This document shows, in pieces, positions 26,377 through 54,975 of a stretch of 64,000 bases of DNA (within the stretch, counting starts at the first letter, position 1; every line of letters starts with the position of its first letter). The translations under genes and the position numbers were made by a program. The DNA comes from Bdellovibrionota bacterium (GTDB taxonomy: Bacteria; Bdellovibrionota_C; UBA2361; OMII01), in NCBI GenBank assembly GCA_044360075.1, contig JBIKLA010000005.1, positions 84,095 through 148,094 of the forward strand, read 5' to 3'. Under the pieces are notes generated by a model that was given only the letters and a program-made list of their open reading frames with translations, did not search any database and had not been told where the DNA came from.

Positions 26377-26407
26377 ACGAACCCCCTAAACGCGAGGGCC
26401 GGGAGAG

Positions 26408-28090: not shown

Positions 28091-28233
28091 GGCTGTCTTC
28101 CGTCGAGATGATTGTCCGGCACTGCTCAGGTTAAGAGTCAGCCATGCACCGCCGGGATTCCGGATTCTTCCTGCAGGAATCAGCACAAGGGGCTGATTAC
28201 GTGGCGTTTGTTAGTGCTTCAAAGGGTGAGAGC

Positions 28234-29772
28234 CTAGGCAGCGTTACCCAGTTTATCCTGGAGCTCCTTGGCCTCCCGGAATTCGGGAGCAAGAGCCCGC
28301 ACCTGTGCCAGGCTCTGTCGCGCCAGGTCGACCTGTCCCAGCCGCTGCGCGAGCACCGCGGCATACCACCAAGCCCGCCAGTGGGGGAATCTCAGCTTGA
28401 GCGCCTCGCTGAACTCTACGAGCGCGTCCACAAGCTGCCCATCCCCGAACTTTGCGAGTCCTGACCAGAAGCAAAGAAACGGATCGGATGTGTAGAAGCT
28501 TCGGTAGCTCCTGATGCCGCTGCGCTTCATGAGGGCACTGGCGTGCACTATCCGGTTGTCTGCATGAAAAAGCGCTTGGGCTCCTGAGGGCTCAAGGGTA
28601 TCGAGGAAAAGATCTCGGGAGTTTCCAAGCGAGTCGAGAAAGCGCTGCGCTCCACTTGAGATGCTTGTTGCCGGGATGGAGCCGAGCTCTGTTGGGGGTG
28701 AATGGGGGCGCTTCTCTAGGCGCATTATGCAATCAAGAACTGGATTGAGCCTGCGTGCGGCGTGCTCCGCACCGAAGATCTGGCAGGCATACACTTGCGC
28801 ATTGCGACCAATGCGCTCCCGATCTTCAGGGCTCTTGTAAAGGTGCTCAAGCGCTTGGGCGTATTCGCGCTCAGAGTGCACGACGTATCCGGTAAAGTCG
28901 TTCATGACGAGGTGCTTCACGCCGCCATACGGGAACACAACCGGCGGAATCCCACAAAACATGACCTCTTGCAAATTAAGCTCTGCAGCAGCGTAGTTGT
29001 CCTCGCACAGGGGATAGCCGTACGCATCCAGAATCGAAAGTACCGCGCCGATGTCGTGTACCATGCCGCGCACATCGAAATCACCAACGCGGCCGATCTG
29101 TGCGGCCTGAGCCTTTAAGGTGGCCTGGTCCCCTCCGGGGCCGCACACGACAAATCGGGCGTCCGGGATTCGGACTGCTGCGGACATCTGGATAAAGTTC
29201 GGGTGCATCTTTGAGAAGTCAACGGTGCCGATGTAGCCGATGTTGAACCCATCGTGGGGAACCCTTCGCACTCCCTCAAGGCGGGCGAAGTCAGTTGCGT
29301 CGTAGACCATCGCCGTTTTCGCTGCGCGAACATCTGGAGCGAGGCTTGCAAAGGCTGGGCTCTCTAAGGTGTAGGGACTGCCGGCGATAGTGAAGTCGAG
29401 CATGTGCATAAGCGTCGGCGGAACGCTTTGCGGGTCGTGATGCCCCCCCACATGAATCCATGCTGCCAGTCGGCATGGCGGAAGGGCCGTGCGGACGAAG
29501 TTGTCCATCTCAGGGCTGTTCCACCATTGGAGCAGTACGATGTCATGCTCAGCGATAAGCTTGAGGAGCGCGCTGTGGTTATCGGGATGCTCAATGATCA
29601 TGCCGGAGGCGGTAGCGAGCACGTGCGCGGCTGCATCGTCCTTGTGAGGGGCAAGCGATACGATCGAGTGCTCGAACAGGCCACCGTTCGAGGAATACTT
29701 TGCCGTGCCAAATACGGTTCGCGCAGCCCCGCCGAGGGACAAGGACTCAATAATGTTGAGGACGCGAACCAT
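28234..29772 (-). CDS. GT4 (GT-B) glycosyltransferase with a C-terminal TPR domain
   Basis: Glycos_transf_1-type C-lobe (FCGIPPVVFPYGGVKHLV...YVVHS) followed by TPR-like helices (WWYAAVLAQRLGQVDLARQ). Confidence 0.75.
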   Translation of the reverse strand: MVRVLNIIESLSLGGAARTVFGTAKYSSNGGLFEHSIVSLAPHKDDAAAHVLATASGMIIEHPDNHSALLKLIAEHDIVLLQWWNSPEMDNFVRTALPPCRLAAWIHVGGHHDPQSVPPTLMHMLDFTIAGSPYTLESPAFASLAPDVRAAKTAMVYDATDFARLEGVRRVPHDGFNIGYIGTVDFSKMHPNFIQMSAAVRIPDARFVVCGPGGDQATLKAQAAQIGRVGDFDVRGMVHDIGAVLSILDAYGYPLCEDNYAAAELNLQEVMFCGIPPVVFPYGGVKHLVMNDFTGYVVHSEREYAQALEHLYKSPEDRERIGRNAQVYACQIFGAEHAARRLNPVLDCIMRLEKRPHSPPTELGSIPATSISSGAQRFLDSLGNSRDLFLDTLEPSGAQALFHADNRIVHASALMKRSGIRSYRSFYTSDPFLCFWSGLAKFGDGQLVDALVEFSEALKLRFPHWRAWWYAAVLAQRLGQVDLARQSLAQVRALAPEFREAKELQDKLGNAA

Positions 29773-41498: not shown

Positions 41499-42554
41499 AT
41501 GAAGTTTATCGATGAAGCGGTCATAGAGGTGAAGGCGGGGAAGGGGGGCGCGGGTGCCCGGCACTTCCGCCGCGAGAAGTTCGTGCCGCTCGGGGGCCCG
41601 GACGGCGGCAATGGCGGCCGCGGCGGCTCGGTGATCCTGCGAGCGGATCCGAACGTGCATACACTTCTCGACTTTAAGTTTCAGGCCGTGTGGGAAGCGC
41701 TGGGCGGCGATGCCGGTGGCGGCTCGCGCAAGGACGGGAAAGCAGGCGATGACATAGTCATTAAGCTGCCGGTTGGTACGCAGGTCTTCAAGTATAATGC
41801 TGAGACGCAGGAGGCGCGCGAGCTCGTTGTCGATCTCGACGCTGCCGATCGAGATGTCGTGCTTGCCAAGGGCGGCCGGGGAGGAAAGGGCAACTCATTC
41901 TTCAAGACCTCTACAAACCAGGCGCCGGAGTACGCGCAGCCGGGCGAAGAGGGCGAGGCCGGGTCGTACATGCTCTCGCTCAAGCTTGTGGCGGATGTCG
42001 GGCTGGTCGGGTTCCCGAACGCTGGGAAGTCGACGCTCATTTCGCGCATCTCTGCGGCGAGACCGAAGATCGCCGACTATCCGTTCACGACGCTTGTTCC
42101 GAACCTTGGGGTCGTGCAGGCGAAGGGCGGGCGCTCATTTGTCGTAGCCGACATCCCGGGCCTTATTCCGGGCGCAAGTGAAGGAAAGGGGCTTGGAATC
42201 CGCTTTTTGAAGCACGTTGAGCGCACCAAGATAATCGCCCACCTCGTCAATCTGACGCAGCTCACCGAGGATGGCGAAGAGGCGAATCTCGAAGAGCTCT
42301 TTGACTGCATCAACGCCGAGCTCAAGAGCTTTTCGGAGGAGCTGGCGGCGCGCGAGCAGATCGTTGTGTTGACGAAGTCTGACTCGGTGTCCTCGCCGGA
42401 GCGGCTTGAGTTTTTTCGCAAGCGCTTTAAGGAGCGTGGCTACGACGTGATGGTTATTTCAAGTGTCGTGGGCACCGGCATCGATGAGCTCATCGAGCGG
42501 ATTGCAAAGAGCGTCTTTCGCGACGCACCGGGCGCCTCGAAGCAGCAGGGTTAG
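41499..42554 (+). CDS. obg: GTPase Obg/CgtA
   Basis: Obg fold N-terminus (MKFIDEAVIEVKAGKGG), G-motifs (GFPNAGKST, DIPGLI). Confidence 0.9.
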   Translation: MKFIDEAVIEVKAGKGGAGARHFRREKFVPLGGPDGGNGGRGGSVILRADPNVHTLLDFKFQAVWEALGGDAGGGSRKDGKAGDDIVIKLPVGTQVFKYNAETQEARELVVDLDAADRDVVLAKGGRGGKGNSFFKTSTNQAPEYAQPGEEGEAGSYMLSLKLVADVGLVGFPNAGKSTLISRISAARPKIADYPFTTLVPNLGVVQAKGGRSFVVADIPGLIPGASEGKGLGIRFLKHVERTKIIAHLVNLTQLTEDGEEANLEELFDCINAELKSFSEELAAREQIVVLTKSDSVSSPERLEFFRKRFKERGYDVMVISSVVGTGIDELIERIAKSVFRDAPGASKQQG

Positions 42555-43429
42555 TCGTGGTTCTTGTGGGACCATGGCTGAAAGCCGATCACGGCTTCAA
42601 TTACGTCGCTTAGCCATAGCCGTATCTCAGAAAGCTTGCAGCCCAGCAGCGGCCTACTGAACGCAGTATTCCAGTTCTGGCTGCGCACGCGCTCGTGCAT
42701 GACCTTAGGGTGAGCGCCGGTGAATTTCTTGAGGCCATAAATGTGCTCATACTCAAAGGTCTCAAAATCGGCGTCGCGCTCGTTGCCGTGCCAGAGGCGG
42801 TGAAAGAGCTTGCTCTTGACGGCCATAGTTTGAGGCGGCCGCACCCAACCGTAATGGTAGACGGTGCCGTTTGCGGGCTGGGTCTTGAGCCTTCGCTCAG
42901 GCGACCTCATAAAGCGCTTCGCGTGAATTCGAAAGCCCTGTGCGTCGCCGCGGCTGCGGGCTCCGGAGCTCTTTCTGACGATGCGGACCTCGTCCCGGTA
43001 CCAGAGGCGAGATGTTGCTATGGTGTCGAATGACCCATAGAAGTGGGCGTAACTAAAGTGCAGGCCCTCAACGTTGGGGTCGTTTGCAAAGCGCTCCACC
43101 TGCTGCTTGATAGCGGCGATGTCCTGCTCGTGCAGCACCTCATCGGCCTGGATGTAGAGGCACCAATCGTTCTGGCAGAGATCGAGAACCTCGTTGGTTT
43201 TTTCGCTCAGGAGGCGCCCGCCCTCGGTTTTGGAGGGGTCCCACACGGTGTCGACGATGCGGATCTTAGGGTCGCCGATAGCCTCAACGAGCTCTCGGGA
43301 ATTGTCCTCGGACTTGCCGACGCCGACGATCATCTCATCGACGACGGGGAGGCAGCTTTTGATAGACTCAACGAAGGGGTACCCCATGAGGGCGCCATTC
43401 TTCACGATCGTAAAACCACTAATCTTCAT
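42551..43429 (-). CDS. soluble GT2-family (GT-A fold) glycosyltransferase
   Basis: N-terminal GT2 motifs (FTIVKNGA...VDEMIVGVGKSEDNS) and DxD-like ADEV; no TM segments. Confidence 0.55.
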   Translation of the reverse strand: MKISGFTIVKNGALMGYPFVESIKSCLPVVDEMIVGVGKSEDNSRELVEAIGDPKIRIVDTVWDPSKTEGGRLLSEKTNEVLDLCQNDWCLYIQADEVLHEQDIAAIKQQVERFANDPNVEGLHFSYAHFYGSFDTIATSRLWYRDEVRIVRKSSGARSRGDAQGFRIHAKRFMRSPERRLKTQPANGTVYHYGWVRPPQTMAVKSKLFHRLWHGNERDADFETFEYEHIYGLKKFTGAHPKVMHERVRSQNWNTAFSRPLLGCKLSEIRLWLSDVIEAVIGFQPWSHKNHD

Positions 43430-43740
43430 CGCTGCTCATGCTACCCGATCTGGCTGTGCACCTATAGCCATGTGGCGGCTAAAATCTCGCCGATGCACCG
43501 GCGAGCCACAACCGTGTTTTTGGGGGAGCGTGATCAGGTTCCTTGTACGAGCGGCCGCATGCGCAACCAGAAGGTCGATAAAATCAGCGATTTCAGTTTG
43601 TTGGCGACCGAATAGCGTTGCTAGTGATAGTATTTTGGGGCGCTGGAATTGACTCTGCCGGGACGTCTGGTAAAGCAGTTTCCTAAGTGTGTGTGGAGAG
43701 GCGCTAGGCTACATTTTTTGCTCTCCATTCGTGAGTCCGC

Positions 43741-44461
43741 TATGAGTGCCTTTCCGATCCTCATGTATCATCAGGTTGACGCGATTGCACCGAAGTATGG
43801 CGCAGACGGCGCACGAGCGCGGCACCGCGGGCTGACGGTTCCAGTTGGACAATTCGCGCGGCAAATGGGGCTTCTCAAGGCGCTGGGATACCGCGGGGTG
43901 AGCATGTCGGACTTAATGCCCTACTTGCGTGGCGAGAAACGCGGGAAGGTTGTCGGAATCACCTTTGATGATGGCTACCGCAACAACCTTACCAACGCAC
44001 TGCCTGTGCTAAGGCGCTATGGATTTTCTTCTACATGCTATGTGGTGAGTGGGCTCGTCGGCGCAACGAATACCTGGGACCGCAAGAACCATGTCGTTGA
44101 GAAGCCGCTCATGACTGCTGACGAGGTGCGTGAGTGGATTGCTGCGGGCCAAGAAGTGGGCTCGCACACCTGCCACCATGTCGACCTTAGGGAAGTACAT
44201 GGAGAGGCGGCGAAGGCCGAGATACAGGGCTCAAAAGCGCAGCTTGAGGCTCTGACTGGCGTGCCGTGCAGGCATTTTTGCTACCCCTATGGCAGCTACC
44301 GTTCTGAGCATGTAGGGTTGGTACGGGAAGCCGGCTACGAAAGCGCCACAACAACGGTGCCTGGGCGTGCGGGTGGTGAGGGTGAGCTACTTGAGCTCCC
44401 GCGCATCGGTGTGTTCAAAGGGACACTGTTGCCCAAGTTTTTCTGGGGGATTCGGAGTTGA
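43741..44461 (+). CDS. NodB-homology polysaccharide deacetylase
   Basis: ILMYHQV, TFDDGY and CYPYG motifs; the 3' end overlaps the GT4 start. Confidence 0.75.
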
Positions 44462-45681
44462 AGAACGGCGTGCTCAAGGTTGCCATCCTTAACCGCAACT
44501 TCTTCCGGAGCGCCGGTGGGGCGGAGAGCTATTCCGTGTCGATAGCAGAGGGCTTGGCCGACCACCGCAACGCGCGTGGCGAGCACGACTTTGAGGTGCA
44601 CGTGTGGAGCCAGAACTGCGACCACAACTACCCTGGGATCACTTACCATACAGTCCCGGGCAAGATACGCCGCCGCTGGATTAATCAGCTCTGGTATTCG
44701 CTGTATACCTGGTGGCATACCCGGTCCGGGTACGACATCGTGCACTCGCATGAAAATACCTGGCACGGAAACGTGCAGACGGCGCATGTGCGCCCAGTGC
44801 GATATCACCTCATGGAGGGGCTGCAAGGGCTCAAGCGGGTGATGCGGTGGCTTAAGATTGTGACGAGCCCTCGGCTTTTGTTCTACGTGTGGGTCGAGTC
44901 GGCGCGCCATGCACCCAAGGGGAATCGGGTAGTGGTGGCAGTGTCGGATGCAGTGCGGCAGCAGACGCTTCTTGCTTTTCCATCATGCGACCCTCAAATG
45001 CCGGTCATTCCGCCGGGGGTCAGTAAGCCTAATGAGACCCTTGGACAGCGCGAAGCTCGCGAGCAGCTTGGCCTGCCAGTTGATGGGACGCTTATCCTTT
45101 TTTGTGGCAATGACTATGCGCGCAAGGGGCTGCCGCACCTTCTTGGAGCGCTTGAAGAGATCCGCTCGCAGGCGGGAGTGTCGGCAGATCTGCCGCACCT
45201 TGTGGTTGTGGGGGATCCCTCGCAGATCGCCCAGCACAAAGAGAAAGCCGATGCGCTGGGCGTGTTGAACCTCGTGCACTTTGTGGGGCGCTGCTCGGAC
45301 ATGGCGGTTGCGTACCGCGCCGCGGATGTCTTGGTGCATCCCACCCTTGAGGATAGCTTCGCTATGGTGGTGCTTGAGGCGATGAACTATGGCGTGCCGG
45401 TCATCGTGAGCGGACCGCGCTACTGCGGCATCAGCGCGTTTCTTGAGAGTGGCCGGGAGGCTGTGCTGCTTGATGACCCGCGAGACATTGAGGCGCTGGC
45501 GAGGGAGATCGAGAGGGTGCTTTCCTCGGATGTGCTGAAGCGCTCGCTGGCAGAGCAGGGTAGGGCCTTTGCCGCGCAGCGCCAGTGGTCGCATTCTGTT
45601 GAGCTCTACGCGGGTCTCTTTAAGCGGATGTGTGGCATACGTGACGCACATGCGCAGGGCGTTGAGGCAAACAACAGGTAG
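44458..45681 (+). CDS. GT4 glycosyltransferase
   Basis: EDSFAMVVLEAMNYGVPVIVS (E-x7-E GT4 motif). Confidence 0.8.
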   Translation: MKNGVLKVAILNRNFFRSAGGAESYSVSIAEGLADHRNARGEHDFEVHVWSQNCDHNYPGITYHTVPGKIRRRWINQLWYSLYTWWHTRSGYDIVHSHENTWHGNVQTAHVRPVRYHLMEGLQGLKRVMRWLKIVTSPRLLFYVWVESARHAPKGNRVVVAVSDAVRQQTLLAFPSCDPQMPVIPPGVSKPNETLGQREAREQLGLPVDGTLILFCGNDYARKGLPHLLGALEEIRSQAGVSADLPHLVVVGDPSQIAQHKEKADALGVLNLVHFVGRCSDMAVAYRAADVLVHPTLEDSFAMVVLEAMNYGVPVIVSGPRYCGISAFLESGREAVLLDDPRDIEALAREIERVLSSDVLKRSLAEQGRAFAAQRQWSHSVELYAGLFKRMCGIRDAHAQGVEANNR

Positions 45682-45688
45682 TATTTCG

Positions 45689-46618
45689 ATGAAGGCGCTT
45701 GGTCAGTTTCTCGGGTATGTGGCGGTCCGCGGGTTCTTTGGGGCGCTGGCGCTTCTTCCGCAGGAGGCTCGCATAGGCTTTTTCCGAACGCTCTTTGTGC
45801 TGGCGACGAAGGTCGTGCCGAGGCTTCGAAGGATATCAATACGCAACCTCGAGCTTGCGTTCCCCGAGAAAGATGACGCCTGGCGGCGAGAGATCTTTTC
45901 GAAGAACTTAACTGAGATGTCGCGCCTCCTTGCCGACACGGTTCGGATGCCGTCGCTGGATGAGGCGTGGGTGCGCACGCATGTGCGGTGCGATTTCCTG
46001 CCAGAGTATGTGGACCGCCTTAAGAAGATGGATGGCAAGGGATGGCTTATCGCAACTGGCCACCTGGGCAGCTTTGAGCTGCTTGGGCACACGATAGGAG
46101 TGCTGGGCTATCCGCTATCGGCTATCGCCAGAAAGTTCCGCAACCCCATGCTTGATCGCTGGTGGACTAAGCTTCGTGAGGGAAGCGGCAATACGATCAT
46201 TGATCGGCGCGGAGCATTCAAGGCGATGGTGTCGCACGTAAGCAAGGGCCGCTCGGTGGCGGTGCTTTTTGACCAGAACGTCACTCGTAACTACGCGGTA
46301 TTTCCCCTGTGGTTTAGGGTTCCGGCTGCGACGACGCGGGCCCTGGCTCTGGCGGCGATCAAGACGGAAGCTCCCGTCGTCGTGGCCTCGATTCGATACA
46401 GCGGCAGCGACAACTACTCGATTGAGGCGTGTGAATGCCAGACCGAGGACATCTACCGGGACACGGTAATGCCTATGGATGACAAGGTGCTTCTTCTGAC
46501 ACAGCGGCTCTCTGACCACTACTGCCGCATGATAGTAGAGTTCCCCGAGGGGTGGTTTTGGCTGCACCGGCGCTGGGCCACCCAGTCGGATGAGAACGCG
46601 CCCTCAGTATACCGCTAG
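45689..46618 (+). CDS. LpxL/HtrB-family lipid A (Kdo2-lipid IVA) late acyltransferase-like protein
   Basis: N-terminal TM; lysophospholipid/lipid A acyltransferase family similarity (GHLGSFELLGH, NYAVFPLWF); the ATG is at 45689. Confidence 0.65.
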   Translation: MKALGQFLGYVAVRGFFGALALLPQEARIGFFRTLFVLATKVVPRLRRISIRNLELAFPEKDDAWRREIFSKNLTEMSRLLADTVRMPSLDEAWVRTHVRCDFLPEYVDRLKKMDGKGWLIATGHLGSFELLGHTIGVLGYPLSAIARKFRNPMLDRWWTKLREGSGNTIIDRRGAFKAMVSHVSKGRSVAVLFDQNVTRNYAVFPLWFRVPAATTRALALAAIKTEAPVVVASIRYSGSDNYSIEACECQTEDIYRDTVMPMDDKVLLLTQRLSDHYCRMIVEFPEGWFWLHRRWATQSDENAPSVYR

Positions 46619-46624
46619 CTCAGC
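46469..46624 (+). repeat. left copy of a ~150-bp imperfect direct repeat (the 3' end of the acyltransferase gene)
   Basis: ~85% identical to 49418..49569. Confidence 0.8.
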
Positions 46625-46968
46625 GCCTCACCGTGTTTTTGTCGTACGCTTGAGGTGGTTTCTAATCCGAAGAGCTTGTCAAAGCTGCACGATGTTGTGG
46701 CGAGGCACCTGAGAGGTGACGCAGGTCGCTTTGAGGCCCCCCTTTGTGATGGCCGGTCCGGAGCTGGGGCTCGACGTGTCTTGGTAAGTGAGGACCTCAA
46801 GGCATCTCACGAACTCGGGATCCCCTTTTCTGCCTTTGTGCATGAACACGGCCTCGCAAACCTCCTAAGCGCAGCCGTGTGGGTGCTGGGTGCCTAGCAA
46901 CATCCGCTCAATATGGCGGCTTTCGGGGATGCGTGGCTCCGGAAGGAGTCCGCTACAGGAGGCTCCAA

Positions 46969-47553
46969 CTAATAGCGAACACCGCCCTTCTTCACATAGC
47001 TTGCCAGCACCTGACACGACTCTTGCGCCAGAACTCCTTCTATCACTTCGACAGCACGCTCGGGGGGCTGCTTGGTTCTTAAAAGCTCTGCCCAATTCGA
47101 GGGGACTGGGCCTTCATCAAATCCGCCGATCTCGGTTGTTTGTTCGATAGACGTTCCCGTAACTACTCTTCGAACCCCTGACCACCAAATATTTCCAAAA
47201 CACTGAATACACGGCTGAGAGCTTGTAACTAGCTCTAATGCCGGGAGATGCGGCGCGCCGAGATTAAAGGTTTGCAAAACTTGCTGACTCACCATGATCG
47301 CCACAGATTCCGCATGCGCAATGGAGCACAACTCTACCTCAACGCGATTAACACCCGGAGCAATGAGCACGCCGCTATCTCGTTCGAAGACAGCCGCACC
47401 AAAAGGCCCTCCTGTACTGTAGTCGACATTTCGTTGCGCCAATGAAATCACAAAACGCATTCTCTCCTCGATTGACGCGTACCGTACGCCCGGGCGCACC
47501 TCACGCTGAAGCCACTCGGGCAATTGTATGGACACACTTGGGAAGGAAGACAT
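46969..47553 (-). CDS. CDA-fold nucleoside/nucleotide deaminase (guanine / cytidine-dCMP deaminase-like)
   Basis: Zinc motifs HAE and PCIQC; the gene GC is lower than its neighbours. Confidence 0.7.
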   Translation of the reverse strand: MSSFPSVSIQLPEWLQREVRPGVRYASIEERMRFVISLAQRNVDYSTGGPFGAAVFERDSGVLIAPGVNRVEVELCSIAHAESVAIMVSQQVLQTFNLGAPHLPALELVTSSQPCIQCFGNIWWSGVRRVVTGTSIEQTTEIGGFDEGPVPSNWAELLRTKQPPERAVEVIEGVLAQESCQVLASYVKKGGVRY

Positions 47554-48017
47554 GCGAATACTCCTGATAAAACGGGCGGCAAAGCGATGATGAACTCAAA
47601 CCCTCTGGTTACTTCCTTCGGATCCTCTGGCATATTCTTAAGGAATGTACCTGTGTTGAAGAGAGAGCCACCCCCAGAGCCGTGCCAGCTCTCAACGCGT
47701 CGATTGCAACCTTATCTCTGTCGCAATTTACTCTAGCAATCTGAATAATCCAGTCACAACATGCGACCTTTTGATTTATTGGGCGTTAAATAACCTCATG
47801 GGGGCCTCGCCGTCATCATTTGTCGGGAGATATTCGGTGCTCGCCATGTACAAGGCAGCTACGTCGACAGGGATAAAGAGCTGAAAGCTCCTCATATCCC
47901 CATGGAGATAGAGTAACGGGACTACACGGTGTCTTGCGTGCTCCCGGCCGTACTCACCCCGTACCGAGTATACCTCTGGAGTGCGTTAGCTGCGCGTGCA
48001 GCTAATGCTTCTATCCA

Positions 48018-49174
48018 CTAGTCGGTGCCGCTGTCGTTCTCGGCCAGATGGATCTTTCCCTCACGCAGGTAAACGCGCTTTACGGCGATTCCAAGCTCAC
48101 GTTCATACCGTTTTACCGCTTTTGCCTGAGGCCCACAGACCAATGACAAGGTGACCCCACGCTCTCCCGCCCGCCCAGTTCGTCCTGCTCGGTGTAGGTA
48201 GGCGCTACTCTCCGTAGGAACATCGAGGTTGAACACGTGGGTCACCCCCTTGATATCGAGCCCACGAGCCGCAACGTCAGAAGCGATAAGAACGTCAACC
48301 GCACCGCTTCGAATGCTATCCATCGCTCTTTTACGATCCTCCTTATCGTGGGCTCCGTGAAGATCGGCAACGCGCATCTTGTGATGAGCAAGCTTACTCG
48401 CCAAGATCTCTGCACTCTCATTTTTATGAACAAAAACCATGGCTTTATCGGGCTTCATCGCGTGAATGAGCTTGCGCACGAGGTCAGGCTTGTCCCTCTC
48501 TTCACAGACCAGATACAGATGCTCGATATTCGAGTTGACGGGCGGTGCTCCCGTTTTTATTCGGGCAATATCAGGGGCAAGCGTCGCAATCGCCTCTGCG
48601 GCCTCTGTGCGCTCGGTGGCTGACGCGAAGATAAATGCGCGATCGCGCAGAGTAGATTTTGCTATCACTCTCAGGTCATCGAGACTTTCGGAGGTAAGGA
48701 CCCGATCTGCTTCGTCGACAACGATGGCTCGTACATAGTGCGTCTTGAGCTTGCCGTCTTCTATCAGCTCGCGGATGCGCCCGGGAGAGCCGATCACGAC
48801 ATGCGGCTTCTTCTTCAACTTTTCGAGCTGTCGCTCTCGCGGAGTTCCTCCGATGAGGAGGACGACCCGAATCGGGAGTCCAGAAAGCTGTGATAGATTT
48901 GTACACTCACGCTGAATTTGAATCGCAAGCTCGTGGGTTGGTGCAATCACCATCACCTGCGCGTTGGCGAGTTTCGGATCGATCCTCGAGTACAACGGCA
49001 ATAGGTAGGCTAACGTCTTACCGGTCCCGGTTTCTGCCTGCAGATACGCGCTCTTTCCTTGAAGGAGCTCTGGGATGGCGGCTGCCTGGATTGGTGTAGG
49101 CTCCCCGATGGATTGCTTTGTCAAAGCGATTATGAGGTCAGGATGAACACCTAACTCGGCGAATGTCGGACTCA
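48018..49174 (-). CDS. DEAD-box ATP-dependent RNA helicase
   Basis: Q-motif; AETGTGKT; DEAD (VVDEAD); SAT; HRAGRTGRAG; the start was taken at MSPTFAELGV. Confidence 0.85.
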
Positions 49175-49417
49175 TGGCGGACCTTGTGAAACGCGCTAAG
49201 CATGCGAGGAAAGTACACTTATACAGCCTTGCGATCCGACAAGCAAAAAGACTCTCAAAAGATTGGGCAACGCTCCTCCCTGGTGAAAGGGCCGCGTATG
49301 CAACGGGCACCGGCCGTTGTGCCCGACCACCCCGAAATGTTCACCCTCTCGTGCACCTTGGCAGCGATATTGGTCCTGAAGATACCCACAATAATGTTAA
49401 GGGCAGGAACATCAACT

Positions 49418-49569
49418 CACCTGGATGGCAAGGTGCTGATCTTGACGCAGCGGCTCTCTAAGCACTACTGCCGCATCATAGCAGAGTGACCTCAGGGGTG
49501 GTTTTGGCTGCACCAGGGCTGGGCGAGCAAGCCGGATGAGAGAGCGCCTTCGGTATACCGCTAGCGAAG
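49418..49569 (+). pseudogene. degenerate duplicate of the acyltransferase 3' end (right direct repeat), with an in-frame TGA
   Basis: Encodes DGKVLILTQRLSKHYCRIIAE* versus DDKVLLLTQRLSDHYCRMIVEFPEGW... in the intact copy. Confidence 0.6.
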
Positions 49570-49573
49570 CGCC

Positions 49574-49966
49574 TTACTTCTTGTGCTCGTTGAAGAGCGC
49601 GGCGAAGCCCTTAAGAGAACCCTCGGGCACGTTTGCCTCAAGCTTCCTCCAGTCGACATCTAGCACCTGTCCGATCGCTTGTTTAGCGCCCTTAGGCACG
49701 TGGCTTGGGAACTTGTTAGGATGGTGCCGTTTGAGCTGATTGTCGTACGAAACCTGATATCCACCGGGAACGTCGACGTGCGCGTGCGTGATAACCTCGC
49801 CGTTCTCGATGCGCGGCTTGTCACGCCGCGCGGTGTACCTGCCGACCGTAGCGCGTGTCGCCTCGTCAAGCAGGACCGGACGCACGGGGAGCGAGAGGCT
49901 CTCGGTTGGGCGCTCCTGTCGCTGGCCCTCTTTTTGGGCGACAAACTCTTTGAAGCTAAGTCCCAT
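49574..49966 (-). CDS. hypothetical protein (~130 aa)
   Basis: An ORF only (MGLSFKEFVAQKEG...). Confidence 0.3.
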   Translation of the reverse strand: MGLSFKEFVAQKEGQRQERPTESLSLPVRPVLLDEATRATVGRYTARRDKPRIENGEVITHAHVDVPGGYQVSYDNQLKRHHPNKFPSHVPKGAKQAIGQVLDVDWRKLEANVPEGSLKGFAALFNEHKK

Positions 49967-50114
49967 GTCGATACTCCGAAAAAACGTGGTTCTTGAGGAG
50001 TTTAACAGCCGGAAGACACTACTCAAGCAAAATGCGGCGAGCGGGACCGGTAAGTCTTGGCAAGGGTGCTGGGCCACCTAGGGGGCACAAAGCGTCTTTT
50101 CGCATCGCCTAACC

Positions 50115-52052
50115 GTGCGATATTATTCCCGCATGTCAGAGGCCTGCCAAAACTACCACATCCTCATAAAGCTCTTTCCGCTGCTGTGCATCGTTGCCTT
50201 TACGGGTTTCGTGCAGGGGCGGGGATTTTTGTGGTGCATCGTGGCCGGAACGGCACTCTACCATGTTCTCAACTTCACGATTCCGCTGGTGCTCGGGAAC
50301 CTTGGATTCCTTCTTCCAAACCATTACAGCGCAGTGATGATCACAGTGTCTGTAGTCCTTGTGGCGATAGGTGCCTACTCGCTGCAGAAGGCAGTTTGGA
50401 GCGGGGGCCTACGTGAGAGAATTTCGGCTCTTCGCTTTCGGCCGCACTGGTTTGATATTCCGATTCTGCTGGCGGTTGCCCAGGCGTTTAAGAATGTGGG
50501 AATTGAGCACCGCTTTGGCTGGGTAGAGGGGCCGGGCTTCTTCGATGCGGCGAACTACCATGTGCCGCGGGCGCTCATGTGGAGCTGGCACGGCAACATG
50601 GAGCCCTACATGACACCGGTGTGGCAGATGATCGCCCACCCCTTCGGCGGCTCGGCTTCACTTCTTTCGCCGGTTCTCTTTGGCTGCGGATGGCTCGGAG
50701 GGGGGTATGCTTCGGAGGTGCTCTCGCTTGGTGGAGCAGCTGCCGTGGCGATGCTCGGCCGTAGCTTTGGCTTTTCTGGGCGGGGTGCGCTGCTCGCAGC
50801 AGTCGCCTTCATCTCGTTTCCTCCCGTTGGGCTTCGGATGTCGGACGTGAATACTGATATCGCGGGAACGTTTCCGATTATCGCGGCAGCAGCGCTCTTT
50901 CGGGGAGCGGGCTCGCTTGGGGAGGCGGTGTTCCTCTTCCTCGCCCTGACGGGCCTGGGGTCGGCGTGCAAGCAGTATGCGGGATTCGTCGCCGCGCCAA
51001 TCGGGCTGATGCTCGCCTACCCCAGCTTCAAGAGGATCTTCACCGATGTGAGGGTTATCGGCGCGGGCTTTGCCGGCGGGGTTGTGGCTGCGGTTTTTAT
51101 GTTCCTGTCGCTGCGGCCGGTGTACCTCGCATTCGGCGACTTCTCAGGGGGAGGAACCGCGGTGGGCCTCACCAACTTCGCAATCGGGCTTGGCCCAACG
51201 TGGTCGGCCCTCATGTACTACCTGCTCACAACGGTCTTTGACCCATTTAGCTTTCTGCCGGACAACTGGCAGCTATTTGGAACCCAGTACACGCGCCGAG
51301 GCCTCTTTGAGGCGCTCCACGTTAACCAGATCTACAACTTTTTTGGGCACACTACATTCGGCGACTTTTCGATGATGAGCCAGGAGCGGAACAAGACGGG
51401 GATGCTCTCAATCCTGATCCTTCCGTGGTTGATCATGGGCTTTAAAAAGGGAACCCGCTGGCTGGTGTTTGGGAGTTTTACCATTATTTGCCTCTTCCAG
51501 TATGCACCGCTTGCCACAAACCACGTCGGGGCCCGCTTCGCCATCCTGCCGTTGGCAGCGTTTGCGCTGTTGTGGGGAGGACGCGCAAACACCAGGCCGG
51601 CGCTTGTGGCGCTATGCATCTTGGTTGCCCTCCTGTGCGACAGAAATTACCTGGAGGGCCGCGGATGGGCGGAGGAGTACAACCCGCTGACGGAGCAGAA
51701 CCGGGATCTCTTTCCGCTGGTGAAGAGCGACACGATAATTCTGCTTTCGAGCTCGCTCCCGCAGGACGCGTTCGTTGCTGGCCGGCTTGCGCAGGCGCGC
51801 TTCGAGTACGTGGTGTGCCCGCAGGACGGCGACTGGACAAGAACTCTCACAGAGTACAGGAAGGGCTACAAGTGGTTCCTGTTTTCCACAAAAGAGGCCA
51901 ATCCGATGCCGGGACCGAACTTTCCGACCCTGCTCTCGCCGCCATGCAAGGCGGTCGCGCTTAATGAGCTGCGCAGCTCGCTGACAAAAGCAGGCTGGAA
52001 GTATCAGAGGAACTTTGACCGCAGCCAGCTTGAGCTGTGGACGCTGCAGTAG
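50115..52052 (+). CDS. polytopic membrane protein, putative GT-C-type glycosyltransferase (ArnT/PMT-like architecture)
   Basis: More than 10 predicted TM helices plus a C-terminal soluble domain; it sits in a glycan/lipid A locus. Confidence 0.4.
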   Translation: MRYYSRMSEACQNYHILIKLFPLLCIVAFTGFVQGRGFLWCIVAGTALYHVLNFTIPLVLGNLGFLLPNHYSAVMITVSVVLVAIGAYSLQKAVWSGGLRERISALRFRPHWFDIPILLAVAQAFKNVGIEHRFGWVEGPGFFDAANYHVPRALMWSWHGNMEPYMTPVWQMIAHPFGGSASLLSPVLFGCGWLGGGYASEVLSLGGAAAVAMLGRSFGFSGRGALLAAVAFISFPPVGLRMSDVNTDIAGTFPIIAAAALFRGAGSLGEAVFLFLALTGLGSACKQYAGFVAAPIGLMLAYPSFKRIFTDVRVIGAGFAGGVVAAVFMFLSLRPVYLAFGDFSGGGTAVGLTNFAIGLGPTWSALMYYLLTTVFDPFSFLPDNWQLFGTQYTRRGLFEALHVNQIYNFFGHTTFGDFSMMSQERNKTGMLSILILPWLIMGFKKGTRWLVFGSFTIICLFQYAPLATNHVGARFAILPLAAFALLWGGRANTRPALVALCILVALLCDRNYLEGRGWAEEYNPLTEQNRDLFPLVKSDTIILLSSSLPQDAFVAGRLAQARFEYVVCPQDGDWTRTLTEYRKGYKWFLFSTKEANPMPGPNFPTLLSPPCKAVALNELRSSLTKAGWKYQRNFDRSQLELWTLQ

Positions 52053-52062
52053 CTAGCTGCGC

Positions 52063-53172
52063 CTAGCGCAAAACCTCAAGGAGCGACGCGCAGACGTACT
52101 GAATCTGCTCGTCGGAGATCTCCGGATAGATCGGCAGCGACACGATGCGGCTCGAGATCTGCTCGGTGACGGGGAAGTCACCCTGCTTGTAGCCAAGCTT
52201 TTTGTAGCCACCTTGCAGATGATACGGGTTCGGGTAGTGCACAACGGTGCTGACACCCTTGGCCGCGAGATCCTGAATTACCTGGTCGCGGTTGTCGACC
52301 TGGATGACGTACAGGTGAAAAACGTGTTCATCGGCGCTTCGGATGTCGGGAAGCTTGAGCCCTTCCGAAGCATGCTTTGAAAGCAGCTGGTCGTACTTCT
52401 GGGCAGCCTCCCAGCGCTTGCGGTTGTAGTCGGCAAGGTGCTTGAGCTTTATGTTGAGAACAACGGCCTGAACGGTGTCGAGGCGCGAGTTCATGCCTTT
52501 CTCCGGGTGCTGGTACTTAATCTCTGACCCATAGTTGCGGAGCTTGCGCACTTGCCGGAAGAGGCGCTCGTCATTGGTGACGATGCCGCCGCCGTCGCCG
52601 TATGCGCCCAGGTTCTTGCCGGGGTAGAAGCTAAAGCATCCGATGTCGCCGAAGGACCCCACGCGCTTGCCCTTCCAGCGGGCACCGTGTGCCTGAGCGG
52701 TGTCCTCAACGACCTTGAGGTTGTGCTTTTTGGCGAAACCCATGACCTGGTCCATGTCGCAGGCGCGGCCATACAGGTGCACGGGACAGATCGCCTTGGT
52801 GCGTGGTGTGACGGCTTTCTCAAGCTTGCTGTAGTCGATGAGGAACGTATCGGGATCCGCGTCCACGAGAACGGGGCGGGCCCCGGCCTCCATAACTCCG
52901 ATGGCAGTGGCGACGAAGGTGTGGGAAGGGATGATTACCTCATCGCCTGCGCCGATGCCGAGAGCCTCGTAGGCGAGCCTGAGGGCGTCAGTTCCGTTTG
53001 CGACGCCGACAGATTGCTCGCTCTCGATGAACTTGGCGAAGTTCTTCTCGAACTCTTCCACTTGCGGACCAAGGACGAAGGCGGCGTCAGTAAAAACTTT
53101 CTGCACGGCGTCGTCGACCTCGGCTTTGATGCTCTGGTACTGGGTCTTCAGGTCAAGAAATGGAACCTTCAT
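52063..53172 (-). CDS. DegT/DnrJ/EryC1-family PLP-dependent sugar aminotransferase (GnnB/WbpE/ArnB-like)
   Basis: Family-typical N-terminus (PFLDLKTQYQSIKAEVDDAV), with PLP-lysine context around the FSFYPGKNLGAYGDGG motif. Confidence 0.9.
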   Translation of the reverse strand: MKVPFLDLKTQYQSIKAEVDDAVQKVFTDAAFVLGPQVEEFEKNFAKFIESEQSVGVANGTDALRLAYEALGIGAGDEVIIPSHTFVATAIGVMEAGARPVLVDADPDTFLIDYSKLEKAVTPRTKAICPVHLYGRACDMDQVMGFAKKHNLKVVEDTAQAHGARWKGKRVGSFGDIGCFSFYPGKNLGAYGDGGGIVTNDERLFRQVRKLRNYGSEIKYQHPEKGMNSRLDTVQAVVLNIKLKHLADYNRKRWEAAQKYDQLLSKHASEGLKLPDIRSADEHVFHLYVIQVDNRDQVIQDLAAKGVSTVVHYPNPYHLQGGYKKLGYKQGDFPVTEQISSRIVSLPIYPEISDEQIQYVCASLLEVLR

Positions 53173-53185
53173 AGCGTGTTCTCCG

Positions 53186-54337
53186 TTAATTCGGGCGGGC
53201 AGTCTGCGGAGCCGCCGGCGGTGCCTCGGGGGCGTTCGTGGGCCGCTCGCGTTGCCACATGCTGACCGGCCGTCCGTCCTCGTGGAAGGAGCGGGTCAGG
53301 GCTTCAAGCACTCTGACAACATCGAGGCCGTTCTGTCCATCTGTCATCGGGCGGTTGCCTGTGAGGATGCAGTCGATGAAGTGCGTGCACTCATTCACAA
53401 GAGGCTCGCCGGTCGTTATCTCGGGCTCAATGCACTGCCCCTCGCGTATCGCCATGCGGAAGTTGTTGAAGCTGTCGGTGTACTCCTCGGGCTTGCTGAC
53501 GGTGACACCCTTGTCGAATATCTTGATGGGCTTCTCTGGTCGCATGTCGTCAAAGGTGAGCATCTTGCGGTCGCCAACCACGGTGATCTCACGCTTCTTC
53601 TGAGGGTCGAGCCAGCTGACGAAGAACGCGGCAACGCGGTTGCCGGGGTAGAGCAGGGTGCCTTGCGCGATGTCCTCAACGGGCCGGCCGAGGAGGTGGT
53701 ACGCCGAGCAGGTTACCTGCATGGGGAGGGAGCCGAAGATATAGTTAAAGATCGCGATGTCGTGCGATGCGAGATCCCACAGGGCATTCACGTCAGCTCG
53801 GATCGGCCCGAGGTTCGTGCGCAGCGAGTGCATGTAAAAAAGGTTACCGAGATCCTTTTTCTCGATGTACTCCTTCATGGCGGTGATGCCGTTGTTGTAG
53901 AGGAAGATGTGGCCGGTCATGAGCTGCAGGTTTCTTCGTGTGGCCTCATCGCATAACTCAAGGGCCTCCTGGCTGTTACTTGCAATCGGCTTTTCAACGA
54001 AGAGGTGCTTGCCCGCCTCAAGAACCTGCATGCCGACCTGAAAGTGGAACTCGGTGGGCACTGCAACGAAGACTGCGTCAAACTCGTACTTCTTGAGGCA
54101 CTCGGCGAATGATGTCTCAAGGGGCAGCCCGGGGATGCGCTGTGACACGATCTCACGGCGCTCAGGGGATGCGTCTGCGGCCACGACAACGCGGGCGTTC
54201 GGGTGGCGCTCGATGGCTCGCACGAGGTTTGGGCCCCAGTGCCCGAGACCGACGACGCACACGCGCACTTCTCTTGAATTTTTAGGACCGTTTCCGCCCT
54301 GAATCGAGGACTTAATCGGAGTATTCATGTTGTTCAC
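53186..54337 (-). CDS. Gfo/Idh/MocA-family NAD-dependent sugar oxidoreductase (GnnA/WbpB-like)
   Basis: Rossmann motif VCVVGLGHWGPN; EKP motif. Confidence 0.85.
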   Translation of the reverse strand: MNNMNTPIKSSIQGGNGPKNSREVRVCVVGLGHWGPNLVRAIERHPNARVVVAADASPERREIVSQRIPGLPLETSFAECLKKYEFDAVFVAVPTEFHFQVGMQVLEAGKHLFVEKPIASNSQEALELCDEATRRNLQLMTGHIFLYNNGITAMKEYIEKKDLGNLFYMHSLRTNLGPIRADVNALWDLASHDIAIFNYIFGSLPMQVTCSAYHLLGRPVEDIAQGTLLYPGNRVAAFFVSWLDPQKKREITVVGDRKMLTFDDMRPEKPIKIFDKGVTVSKPEEYTDSFNNFRMAIREGQCIEPEITTGEPLVNECTHFIDCILTGNRPMTDGQNGLDVVRVLEALTRSFHEDGRPVSMWQRERPTNAPEAPPAAPQTARPN

Positions 54338-54576
54338 CTCCCTGGTACGGTGCCCGCCGTCAGCCGGCGCCCACCGTCTAGCTTACGCTCAAAAAAGCGC
54401 TCCTATTCCTCCTTAAAGATGCGAGGCCGGTGTTAGCAGGTGCGCTCAAGTGCCCGAATCAACTTGGCCGTCCGCCTATTCAGCTGGGCCAAGGTGAGGT
54501 AGAATTCTGGATTATTCGATAAGTCGCTGAAATGGCGATGTTTGTAAGCGCGAGCCTTAGTTCTGGGATGGCAGCC

Positions 54577-54975
54577 ATGAAGTATGAAGAGATCGAGATC
54601 GGACAATTCGGCGAGGTGACTAAGAGCTTCACGGAGCGCGATGTTGAGGCCTTTGCCGAGCTGTCGCTTGACACAAATCCGATACATCTCGACGAGGCAT
54701 ACGCGGCAACGACGATCTTCAAGAAGAGGATCGTGCACGGGATGCTTTCGTCGTCGCTTATCAGCGCAGCGCTTGCAACGAAGTGTCCCGGCGCGGGTTC
54801 CATCTACCTTGGGCAGGAGCTTTCGTTCCAGAAGCCGGTGTACATTGGCGACACGCTGACGGCGCGGGTTGAGGTAATCGAGAAGCGCCCAAAGCGTGTT
54901 GTGGTGCTGAGCACGACCGTCACAAACCAAAACGGCGACACGGTGATCACCGGCAAAGCTATTCTCAAGAAATAA
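54577..54975 (+). CDS. MaoC-like (R)-specific enoyl-CoA hydratase / hotdog dehydratase
   Basis: FTERDVEAFAELSLDTNPIHLD...IVHGML. Confidence 0.75.
   Translation: MKYEEIEIGQFGEVTKSFTERDVEAFAELSLDTNPIHLDEAYAATTIFKKRIVHGMLSSSLISAALATKCPGAGSIYLGQELSFQKPVYIGDTLTARVEVIEKRPKRVVVLSTTVTNQNGDTVITGKAILKK

Follow-up and report, generated by a model that had tools for sequence, protein, structure and literature searches.

The GnnA/GnnB systems of Acidithiobacillus ferrooxidans, Leptospira and Campylobacter (PDB 7bvj) consist of a Gfo/Idh/MocA oxidoreductase gene followed directly by a DegT aminotransferase gene, in a housekeeping context and without a partner N-acetyltransferase. The WlbA/WlbB/WlbC, WbpB/WbpD/WbpE and archaeal MMP0352/0351/0350 pathways, which lead to UDP-GlcNAc3NAc(A), have the same first two reactions, both enzyme families and the same chemistry. 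Enzymes of the ArnT/PMT_2 type (GT39/GT83-type polyprenyl-phosphate-sugar transferases) present a GT-C fold, a conserved Asp-containing loop after an early TM helix and a soluble C-terminal domain. LpxL/HtrB acyltransferases are recognized by a full-length PF03279 domain, an HX4E motif and an N-terminal anchor, and form a conserved single-gene orthologue group. These features recur, the reactions as predicted ones, in the 64-kb stretch of DNA that we analyzed (hereafter, the window), which derives from an uncultured freshwater LPS-bearing bacterium whose nearest MAGs are deposited under the names delta proteobacterium or Bdellovibrionota.

Layout of the locus and separability of its modules

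We lean, although not strongly, towards reading the stretch as a mosaic in which three separately inherited modules of LPS or envelope biogenesis (Table 1) are set within the conserved housekeeping backbone of a freshwater lineage. This backbone runs from L21-L27-Obg to AlaDH-FolD-GcvTHP. An initial annotation of this DNA had proposed a single lipid A or core remodelling route. Its ORFs were confirmed, as were its NodB deacetylase, its LpxL-type acyltransferase and the Gfo gene directly followed by DegT; the single route was not, as the modules are separable in relatives and have unrelated genes between them. Indeed, three such genes, encoding a deaminase, a DEAD-box helicase and a hypothetical protein, separate the acyltransferase gene from the GT-C gene. 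In L024, a relative whose Gfo is 77% identical, the order is L21-Obg-GT-C-DegT-Gfo-AlaDH-FolD-GcvT, and the neighbourhood comparison found there no GT2-like/NodB/GT4/LpxL/deaminase/DEAD block. The GT-C gene and the DegT-Gfo pair are convergent and therefore not co-transcribed. Synteny in relatives shows modules A, B and C to be inherited separately. Taken as a whole, the locus presents ordinary LPS biology together with a fast-diverging GT-C subfamily; its domains, folds and synteny are observed, and its substrates and sinks are all inferred. A second glycan cluster is found at 24-30 kb.

Table 1 Positions of the envelope-related modules, their genes and the intervening genes in the window
Feature	Coordinates	Strand	Basis
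292-aa soluble protein, possible GT-A/GT2-like	42551..43429	-	sub-threshold Pfam
Module A: operon of CE4/NodB deacetylase, WaaG-like GT4 and LpxL-type acyltransferase	43742-46618	+	
De-N-acetylase of the CE4/NodB family, 239 aa in metagenome gene calls	43742..44461 (ORF opens 43649)	+	Polysacc_deac_1 E 4e-29
GT4 (GT-B) glycosyltransferase	44458..45681	+	Glycos_transf_1 E 1e-28
Secondary (late) lipid A acyltransferase of the LpxL type, 309 aa	45689..46618 (ORF from 45569)	+	Lip_A_acyltrans E 7e-41
Intervening genes, envelope-unrelated	46969..49966	-	Pfam and gene calls
Cytidine/tRNA-deaminase-like gene	46969-47553	-	Pfam dCMP_cyt_deam_1
DEAD-box helicase	48018-49175 (ORF variant to 49310)	-	Pfam DEAD, Helicase_C
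130-aa hypothetical	49574-49966	-	gene call
Module B: 639-aa polytopic GT-C	50133-52052	+	
Polytopic GT-C-fold glycosyltransferase, 639 aa	50133..52052 (ORF from 50115)	+	AF2/Foldseek; Pfam blank
Module C: Gfo/Idh/MocA dehydrogenase, then sugar-3-aminotransferase	52063-54328	-	
DegT-family PLP-dependent sugar 3-aminotransferase, GnnB/WbpE/QdtB-like clade	52063..53172	-	DegT_DnrJ_EryC1 E 2e-120
Gfo/Idh/MocA NAD-dependent oxidoreductase, probable UDP-GlcNAc 3-dehydrogenase	53186..54328 (ORF to 54337)	-	Pfam

Of the two glycosyltransferases initially proposed besides the GT-C-like protein, the GT4 was confirmed, and the GT2, the 292-aa protein encoded divergently from the NodB operon, matched Pfam only below threshold (Glyco_tranf_2_4, 22.6 bits vs a cut-off of 27.5; Glycos_transf_2, E 0.007). 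This protein matched nothing in NCBIfam or the PDB, and its single-sequence AF2 model (pLDDT 39) was unusable. It is a possible GT-A/GT2-like glycosyltransferase, judging by this weak signal, and the role given to it is a weak analogy.

The Gfo-DegT pair and the destination of its sugar

The Gfo protein contains both the N- and C-terminal GFO_IDH_MocA domains (E 3e-23 and 6e-13 in Pfam) and the catalytic EKP and D..H residues, of which E112, K113, P114 and D185 never vary across 25 homologues and H189 hardly does (conserved in at least 90%). The Gfo stop is followed, after 13 bp, by the start of the DegT gene, which has the same orientation. The archaeal UDP-GlcNAc 3-dehydrogenase is the top NCBIfam match of the window Gfo, at 162 bits and thus far below the cut-off of 450, and UDP-GlcNAc 3-dehydrogenase is likewise the top match of 25/25 sampled homologues. 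When the Gfo family profile was compared with the PDB, 3c1a scored 127 bits, GnnA (7bvj) came second with 112 and WlbA (3q2k) scored 92. For DegT, the matches were 7b0d (398 bits), DesV (350), QdtB (345), WbpE (300) and ArnB (171-179), such that the 3-aminotransferases score about twice as high as ArnB, the E. coli form of which is 32% identical. These similarities make the two proteins most likely a nucleotide-sugar 3-dehydrogenase/3-aminotransferase pair converting UDP-GlcNAc to UDP-GlcNAc3N: Gfo would oxidize UDP-GlcNAc at C3, and transamination by DegT would yield UDP-GlcNAc3N.

The initial identification of the pair as GnnA/GnnB is supported as to the chemistry, by both NCBIfam and the PDB, and less so as to a specific kinship to the characterized enzyme. 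The window Gfo is 26-31% identical to GnnA of A. ferrooxidans at 54-70 bits (the 31% extends over only 125 aa, at 63 bits), whereas homologues from glycan cassettes are closer to that GnnA (80-105 bits). As no characterized GnnA is a particularly near relative of the window Gfo, the GnnA/GnnB reading is plausible and no more. The pair also differs from GnnA/GnnB in that some close Gfo orthologues (L023, L025 and L045) have no adjacent DegT, and such orthologues often have neither DegT nor the GT-C.

As to the sink, we favour LpxA and a GlcN3N-containing lipid A, i.e., a GnnA/GnnB role, because the pair in the clade of at least 71% Gfo identity is found without N-acetyltransferase and GT2 partners and behaves as a scattered core gene. 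In this clade, Gfo is surrounded by ribosomal, LptE, tRNA synthetase or glycine-cleavage genes. It and DegT are 77% and 73% identical in the window and L024, a housekeeping rate of divergence, as compared with Obg (78%) and GcvT (76%). Lipid A with GlcN3N has been described from Bdellovibrio and Bacteriovorax (PMC8036547; PMC7795004, ref. 19). Genes for lpxA, lpxC and lpxD were not found in the window.

The less likely, though best surviving, alternative to LpxA is that the pair supplies a 2,3-diamino sugar (UDP-GlcNAc3NAc or uronic acid, WbpB/WbpE- or WlbA/WlbC-like) to O-antigen, capsule or protein glycosylation rather than to lipid A, with the acetyltransferase and glycosyltransferases encoded elsewhere. 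Indeed, all Gfo homologues of 37-66% identity are found in GT2-Gfo-DegT-hexapeptide-acetyltransferase cassettes, which present a UDP-GlcNAc3NAc logic, and in L018 the closest outgroup pair (66-69% identity) is part of a glycan cluster with an acetyltransferase. The window Gfo is, moreover, not closer to GnnA than the cassette proteins are, WbpE is a strong match of DegT, and the fast-evolving GT-C next door and the second glycan cluster point to surface glycan diversity nearby. However, no hexapeptide transferase or cassette-type GT2 is found in the window or beside the orthologues of at least 71% identity, the gene calls of the window and the surroundings of these orthologues likewise contain no UDP-GlcNAc 6-dehydrogenase or 2-epimerase, and the cassette acetyltransferases, used as tblastn queries, had no match in the window, although an N-acetyltransferase could be encoded outside it. 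The absence of these partners sets the window and the close orthologues apart from the Wlb, Wbp and MMP pathways, and the housekeeping context and housekeeping-like rate of divergence argue for lipid A as well.

If the pair is equivalent to GnnA/GnnB, then this uncultured freshwater lineage makes a GlcN3N-type lipid A. Lipid A of this type carries four acyl chains in amide linkage; as a rule, it activates TLR4 poorly and resists cationic antimicrobial peptides (CAMPs).

The GT-C protein and the Arn-like route initially proposed

The AF2 model of the 639-aa protein (pLDDT 85.8, pTM 0.89) was compared with the PDB using Foldseek, and the top 18 matches were all GT-C enzymes (TM scores of 0.38-0.50), in line with the initial description of the protein as GT-C-like. 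These matches include ALG12, ArnT, STT3, PimE, AglB, Emb/Aft and Pmt, with ArnT (5f15) matching at E 8e-4 and a probability of 1.0. In terms of sequence, none of the 15 family members considered matches Pfam, including the PMT_2 models PF13231/PF02366 at E≤5, and BLAST shows no similarity to E. coli ArnT. The family profile retrieves 41 representatives at ≤1e-30 (50% clustering), with PMT_2 proteins as more distant matches, and the link to PMT_2 is accordingly transitive only, through distant relatives bearing that domain. The family alignment presents a conserved FD(S/A)xxYH(I/V)PR loop motif and a soluble C-terminal domain of about 130 aa with two invariant Cys. From sequence and model, the protein is assigned to a divergent PMT_2/ArnT-superfamily GT-C branch beyond Pfam coverage, and the family widens the superfamily into sequence space outside Pfam. 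It differs from described ArnT/PMT_2 enzymes in an extra N-terminal helical extension of about 100 aa, in the very small size of its core family and in having no ArnC, ArnA, ArnD, ArnE or ArnF partner genes.

In the periplasm, this rapidly diverging GT-C would take a sugar from a polyprenyl-phosphate donor and attach it to an acceptor of the envelope, with the donor-loading GT2 presumably encoded elsewhere. In Bdellovibrio lipid A, phosphate is replaced by mannose; the literature searched yielded no enzymes for this step. By analogy, the GT-C may conceivably cap a GlcN3N-based lipid A with a sugar, as a glycosyltransferase of lipid A or the inner core, such that modules B and C together would yield a phosphate-poor, amide-linked lipid A, although we consider this improbable. 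The position of the fast-diverging GT-C on the chromosome, next to the probable UDP-GlcNAc3N genes, is conserved, and its locus presents gene-replacement dynamics at a fixed site, typical of surface-structure diversification.

The initial annotation saw in these genes the logic of one Arn/Lgm-like route, in which the aminosugar made by Gfo and DegT would be loaded onto undecaprenyl phosphate by the GT2, deacetylated by NodB and passed on to lipid A or core by the GT-C. We consider this model, taken as a whole, very unlikely. In its favour, a CE4 deacetylase, an ArnT-superfamily GT-C and an aminosugar pair are found within 11 kb, and distant GT-C homologues are accompanied by an ArnC-like GT2 within 4-8 kb (L005 and L015). 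Three related genomes also have the GT-C next to Gfo, whether or not DegT is present; as these genomes are closely related and syntenic overall, they do not count as independent evidence. GT-C homologues of 33-47% identity, from 9 GTDB genomes and metagenomes, never have Gfo, DegT, NodB, GT4 or LpxL within 10 kb. Furthermore, the window lacks sequence relatives of ArnA, as the initial annotation had already stated, and of ArnD and ArnT (BLAST). E. coli ArnC, used as a tblastn query, likewise found nothing in the window at E≤1e-4, although it does match other loci, and the 292-aa protein shows no ArnC similarity and no TM segment. Since ArnA, an ArnC-like GT2 and relatives of ArnD and ArnT are thus missing from the window, the Arn-like logic is not supported. 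Nor is a deacylase of the ArnD/LgmC/NaxD type co-encoded with the transferase, as the CE4 gene lies 5.7 kb from the GT-C gene, in an operon with GT4 and LpxL that the three unrelated genes set apart. The convergence of GT-C with Gfo-DegT and the absence of the whole NodB block from L024, where GT-C-DegT-Gfo is kept, also count against one route. The practical value of the analysis is hence a corrected annotation, in which the adjacency of deacetylase, glycosyltransferases, GT-C and aminotransferase defines no new Arn-like pathway.

The nodB-GT4-lpxL operon

Module A is a tight operon in which the GT4 gene and the end of NodB share 4 bp and the acyltransferase gene starts 7 bp past GT4. The motifs TFDDG, HTCHH and RHFCYPY can be read in the translation of the NodB-family protein, which is probably cytoplasmic, as it has neither a signal peptide nor a TM segment. 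In the PDB, GT4 is best matched by WaaG/RfaG, glucosyltransferases of the LPS core (2iv7, 61 bits; 8b5q, 45 bits). PF03279 spans the full length of the acyltransferase, and its translation presents a GHLGSFE (HX4E) motif and an N-terminal hydrophobic anchor. Its top NCBIfam matches are lipid A lauroyl acyltransferase families (104-110 bits, under the equivalog cut-offs, vs 66 bits for PatA). The protein has 688 homologues with E≤1e-10, at least 120 of which share at least 51% identity at about 309 aa, and many carry the name KDO2-lipid IV(A) lauroyltransferase.

By analogy to WabH/WabN of Klebsiella, we suggest that LpxL would add a secondary acyl chain to Kdo-lipid IVA and that the WaaG-like GT4 would add a core sugar, probably HexNAc, which the cytoplasmic CE4 enzyme would then de-N-acetylate; for GT4 and NodB, these analogies are weak. 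That the three proteins instead build a non-LPS glycolipid, with GlcNAc transferred to a lipid and the product de-N-acetylated before its acylation, as in the logic of GPI PIG-A/L/W or PimA/PatA, is the least likely of the readings considered, as the tight operon, the PatA structures (the only solved ones to match the acyltransferase, at 30 bits) and the weak matches of GT4 to BshA, MshA and GlcNAc-PG synthase models are set against a far better fit of the acyltransferase to LpxL models, WaaG as the top PDB match of GT4, and acyltransferase orthologues that are widespread as single genes without NodB or GT4.

As such single genes, the orthologues point to an autonomous, conserved role for the acyltransferase, and those of 56-70% identity are found in housekeeping surroundings. 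The window gene differs from other LpxL/HtrB genes in that it alone forms an operon with NodB and GT4; relatives have the gene in an operon with a PMT_2 GT-C, and in L041 and L044 the LpxL orthologue is followed by a PMT_2 GT-C different from that of the window.

Gene content and arrangement

ORF listing together with Pfam and NCBIfam scans confirmed the gene content given in the initial annotation (see the table). The NodB and GT4 genes overlap by 4 bp and a gap of 7 bp separates GT4 from LpxL, so that the three are packed as an operon. DegT and Gfo, both on the minus strand, lie 13 bp apart, and the gene of the 639-aa polytopic protein is convergent with them, with 10 bp between the stop codons; its called start is 6 codons downstream of the start of a 645-aa ORF. 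The region has housekeeping genes on both sides, with L21, L27 and Obg lying upstream, and MaoC, AlaDH, FolD and GcvTHP following downstream. The same arrangement recurs across numerous metagenomic contigs that belong to a single species-level population. The contigs bearing these genes reach 314 kb in length. In the promoter scan, the count was not above the shuffled expectation, and the promoter/terminator scan was uninformative on operon limits. For the 292-aa GT2-like protein, a PDB sequence search gave no match and the single-sequence AF2 model (pLDDT 39) was unusable.

Features of the window considered in the analysis
Feature	Position	Strand	Source
ABC-transporter ATPase, methyltransferase and GT4 cluster	24295-29772	-	Pfam, called genes
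292-aa protein, sub-threshold GT2 signals only	42551-43429	-	Pfam/NCBIfam scan
CE4/NodB deacetylase	43742-44461	+	Pfam/NCBIfam scan
GT4	44458-45681	+	Pfam/NCBIfam scan
Lip_A_acyltrans (LpxL-like)	45689-46618	+	Pfam/NCBIfam scan
Deaminase	46969-47553	-	Pfam/NCBIfam scan
DEAD-box helicase	48018-49175	-	Pfam/NCBIfam scan
Hypothetical	49574-49966	-	ORF/gene call
639-aa polytopic protein, no Pfam match	50133-52052	+	Gene call
DegT aminotransferase	52063-53172	-	Pfam/NCBIfam scan
Gfo/Idh/MocA oxidoreductase	53186-54328	-	Pfam/NCBIfam scan
MaoC-like dehydratase	54568-54975	+	

These genes had been read as a single Arn-like (Arn/Lgm-like) pathway within one integrated remodelling locus. When all window proteins were compared by BLAST with E. 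coli ArnA, B, C, D and T, the sole match was that of DegT to ArnB; unlike the Arn pathway, the window thus offers an ArnB-like DegT and no match to ArnA, ArnC, ArnD or ArnT. A tblastn search with ArnC gave zero matches in the 64-kb window, and the same query detects GT2 genes in other loci. As the Arn partners are missing and Pfam found no UDP-sugar dehydrogenase, formyltransferase or hexapeptide transferase among the called genes across the window, the single-pathway model is unsupported. The integrated locus fared no better, as the related locus L024, with the gene order L21-Obg-GT-C-DegT-Gfo-AlaDH-FolD-GcvT, keeps GT-C-DegT-Gfo but lacks the 7.5-kb block, which in the window runs from the 292-aa gene as far as the hypothetical gene. 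The picture of an integrated "Arn-like remodelling locus" is an artefact produced by adjacent genes. Once it is set aside, the region holds genes of ordinary LPS biosynthesis, a pair that probably makes UDP-GlcNAc3N, and a GT-C of the ArnT superfamily that is divergent and rapidly replaced.

The Gfo-DegT pair

The best PDB matches of DegT are sugar C3-aminotransferases (7b0d, 398 bits; DesV, 350; QdtB, 345; WbpE, 300), as compared with about 171-179 bits for ArnB (32% identity to the E. coli protein); our literature search found no account of what 7b0d is. For Gfo, the best NCBIfam model is the archaeal UDP-GlcNAc 3-dehydrogenase (162 bits, below the cut-off of 450), and this was the top model in 25/25 sampled homologues. 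The Gfo family profile, searched against all PDB sequences, placed A. ferrooxidans GnnA second (112 bits), with WlbA at 92 bits; PDB 7bvj was confirmed as GnnA. The catalytic EKP and D..H are kept, with E112, K113, P114 and D185 invariant and H189 nearly so. Conversion of UDP-GlcNAc via the 3-keto intermediate to UDP-GlcNAc3N is therefore the most likely chemistry, and the 3-aminosugar assignment made initially was reasonable. A kanosamine (NtdC/NtdA) or aminocyclitol role was rejected, as DegT scores only 202 bits with NtdA vs 300-398 and the best match of the Gfo family is instead UDP-GlcNAc 3-dehydrogenase.

The product could be destined for lipid A or for a glycan, and the Gfo relatives occur in two contexts. 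Cassette-type homologues, at 37-66% identity (L018, L026, L028/29, L032-L035, L037-L039; L numbers denote loci from related genomes and metagenome contigs), lie in a recurrent cassette of a GT2 of ~240 aa (ArnC-like catalytic domain), Gfo, DegT, a hexapeptide acetyltransferase and unknown polytopic proteins, a gene set with the logic of a UDP-GlcNAc3NAc glycan pathway. Housekeeping-type relatives, at 71% identity or more, have no hexapeptide transferase or cassette GT2 nearby; their neighbours are glycine-cleavage, tRNA-synthetase, ribosomal, LptE and acyl-CoA metabolism genes. Gfo is accompanied by DegT in the window, L021, L022 and L024 and stands alone in L023, L025 and L045. Between the window and L024, identity is 77% for Gfo and 73% for DegT, comparable to Obg (78%), GcvT (76%) and FolD (75%). 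This core-gene-like divergence, together with the lack of an acetyltransferase, tips the balance slightly towards a GnnA/GnnB role with a GlcN3N lipid A sink. GlcN3N is known from the lipid A of Bdellovibrio and Bacteriovorax (PMC8036547; PMC7795004, ref. 19). A. ferrooxidans GnnA, however, scores higher with the cassette proteins (80-105 bits) than with the window clade (54-70 bits), and the window Gfo is thus a possible rather than an established orthologue of GnnA. As the enzymatic chemistry would be identical for both sinks, sequence alone cannot decide between them.

The cassette is widespread and conserved in soil and freshwater metagenomes (L018 10001-16351; L026 582-7375; L028 9272-12688; L033 4641-8387), with one or two polytopic proteins that have no Pfam match. 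Its membrane proteins (L018, L020, L026, L033) were considered as GT-C relatives and rejected, with 0 matches by HMM and tblastn. The MaoC-like dehydratase is divergent from Gfo, adjoins it also in L021 and L022 and is missing in L024; a link to 3-hydroxyacyl supply is possible.

The polytopic protein and its slot

A word-index search of 5.8 billion proteins returned only 18 clusters for the 639-aa protein, and 0/15 aligned family members match any Pfam model. The AlphaFold2 model based on the family alignment, which is of high confidence (pLDDT 85.8, pTM 0.89), was searched against the PDB with Foldseek, and the top 18 matches are all GT-C glycosyltransferases, including ALG12, ArnT, STT3, PimE, ALG9, AglB, EmbB, AftA/B/D and Pmt, in agreement with the GT-C-like call of the initial annotation. 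Searched exhaustively against 1.84 billion representatives, the family profile gave 41 matches at <=1e-30 and 1235 at <=1e-3; PF13231 (PMT_2) is present in 9/10 sampled distant matches, in five cases with a score above the cut-off set by Pfam. From the fold matches and the PMT_2 domain of distant relatives, the family is a small, divergent branch of the ArnT/PMT_2 superfamily. In the alignment, the invariant residues D108 and F137-D138-x3-Y142-H143-x2-R146 cluster in a loop that follows an early TM helix, and we take this loop to be the catalytic one of EL1 type. At the C-terminus, ~130 residues fold into a soluble alpha/beta domain in which two cysteines are invariant, suggesting a periplasmic location.

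The genome scan for GT-C relatives required the pattern YHIPR, and the window's own genome (YHVPR) therefore falls outside it. Within 10 kb of the homologues at 33-47% identity, in nine GTDB genomes (labelled by depositors as delta proteobacterium, Bdellovibrionota or Acidobacteriota) and metagenome contigs, there is no Gfo, DegT, NodB, GT4 or LpxL; some lie among PMT_2 paralogues with an ArnC-like GT2, others beside a GT87 gene. GT-C adjoins Gfo solely in close relatives in which the whole neighbourhood is syntenic, and in L013 it directly abuts AlaDH, with no Gfo or DegT in between. The housekeeping genes flanking the slot are 63-81% identical across related genomes. The GT-C genes occupying it in the window, L023 (924-2843) and L024/L013 (8711-10657 and 9-1664) fall into three separate subclades (33-41% identity), which indicates that the slot is a gene-replacement or diversification hot spot within a conserved backbone.

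The family is multi-copy in some genomes, as one MAG (JAFMJG01; L009 and L012) holds two paralogues and the window protein (P0001) was found together with another family member (P0011) in one sample. In L005 (82-14062), a homologue at 47% identity belongs to an array that comprises four PMT_2 paralogues of 499-1026 aa; a GDSL lipase and an ArnC-like GT2 are also present there.

The NodB-GT4-LpxL operon and a second cluster

Among NCBIfam models, the acyltransferase matches LpxL-type models best (104-110 bits), with PatA lower (66 bits), and its sequence shows an N-terminal anchor as well as the motif GHLGSFE. The best solved-structure matches of GT4 are WaaG/RfaG. In NodB the CE4 motifs are intact and an export signal is lacking. 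We infer that the operon serves LPS late acylation as well as core HexNAc addition and de-N-acetylation; a literature search on WabN found no mechanistic detail. The same genes could make a non-LPS glycolipid by a GlcNAc-deacetylate-acylate logic, but this is less likely because the distribution of the acyltransferase is autonomous and conserved: it is a member of a large, well-conserved group of proteins of ~309 aa, and its orthologues with 56-70% identity are found in housekeeping surroundings that include neither NodB nor GT4.

In L041 (4749-7147) and L044 (8001-10364), a different PMT_2/ArnT-like GT-C of 476-489 aa, which the window lacks, follows 3-4 bp after the LpxL orthologue. Such an arrangement suggests that the two form an operon, which would couple late acylation with glycosylation of lipid A in the periplasm. 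The literature was also searched for a mannosyltransferase acting on Bdellovibrio lipid A, with no relevant result.

Elsewhere in the window, a second glycan-type cluster encodes a 675-aa protein containing an ABC-transporter ATPase, a 560-aa TylF/CmcI-type methyltransferase and a 512-aa GT4, and may be an ABC-dependent polysaccharide system.
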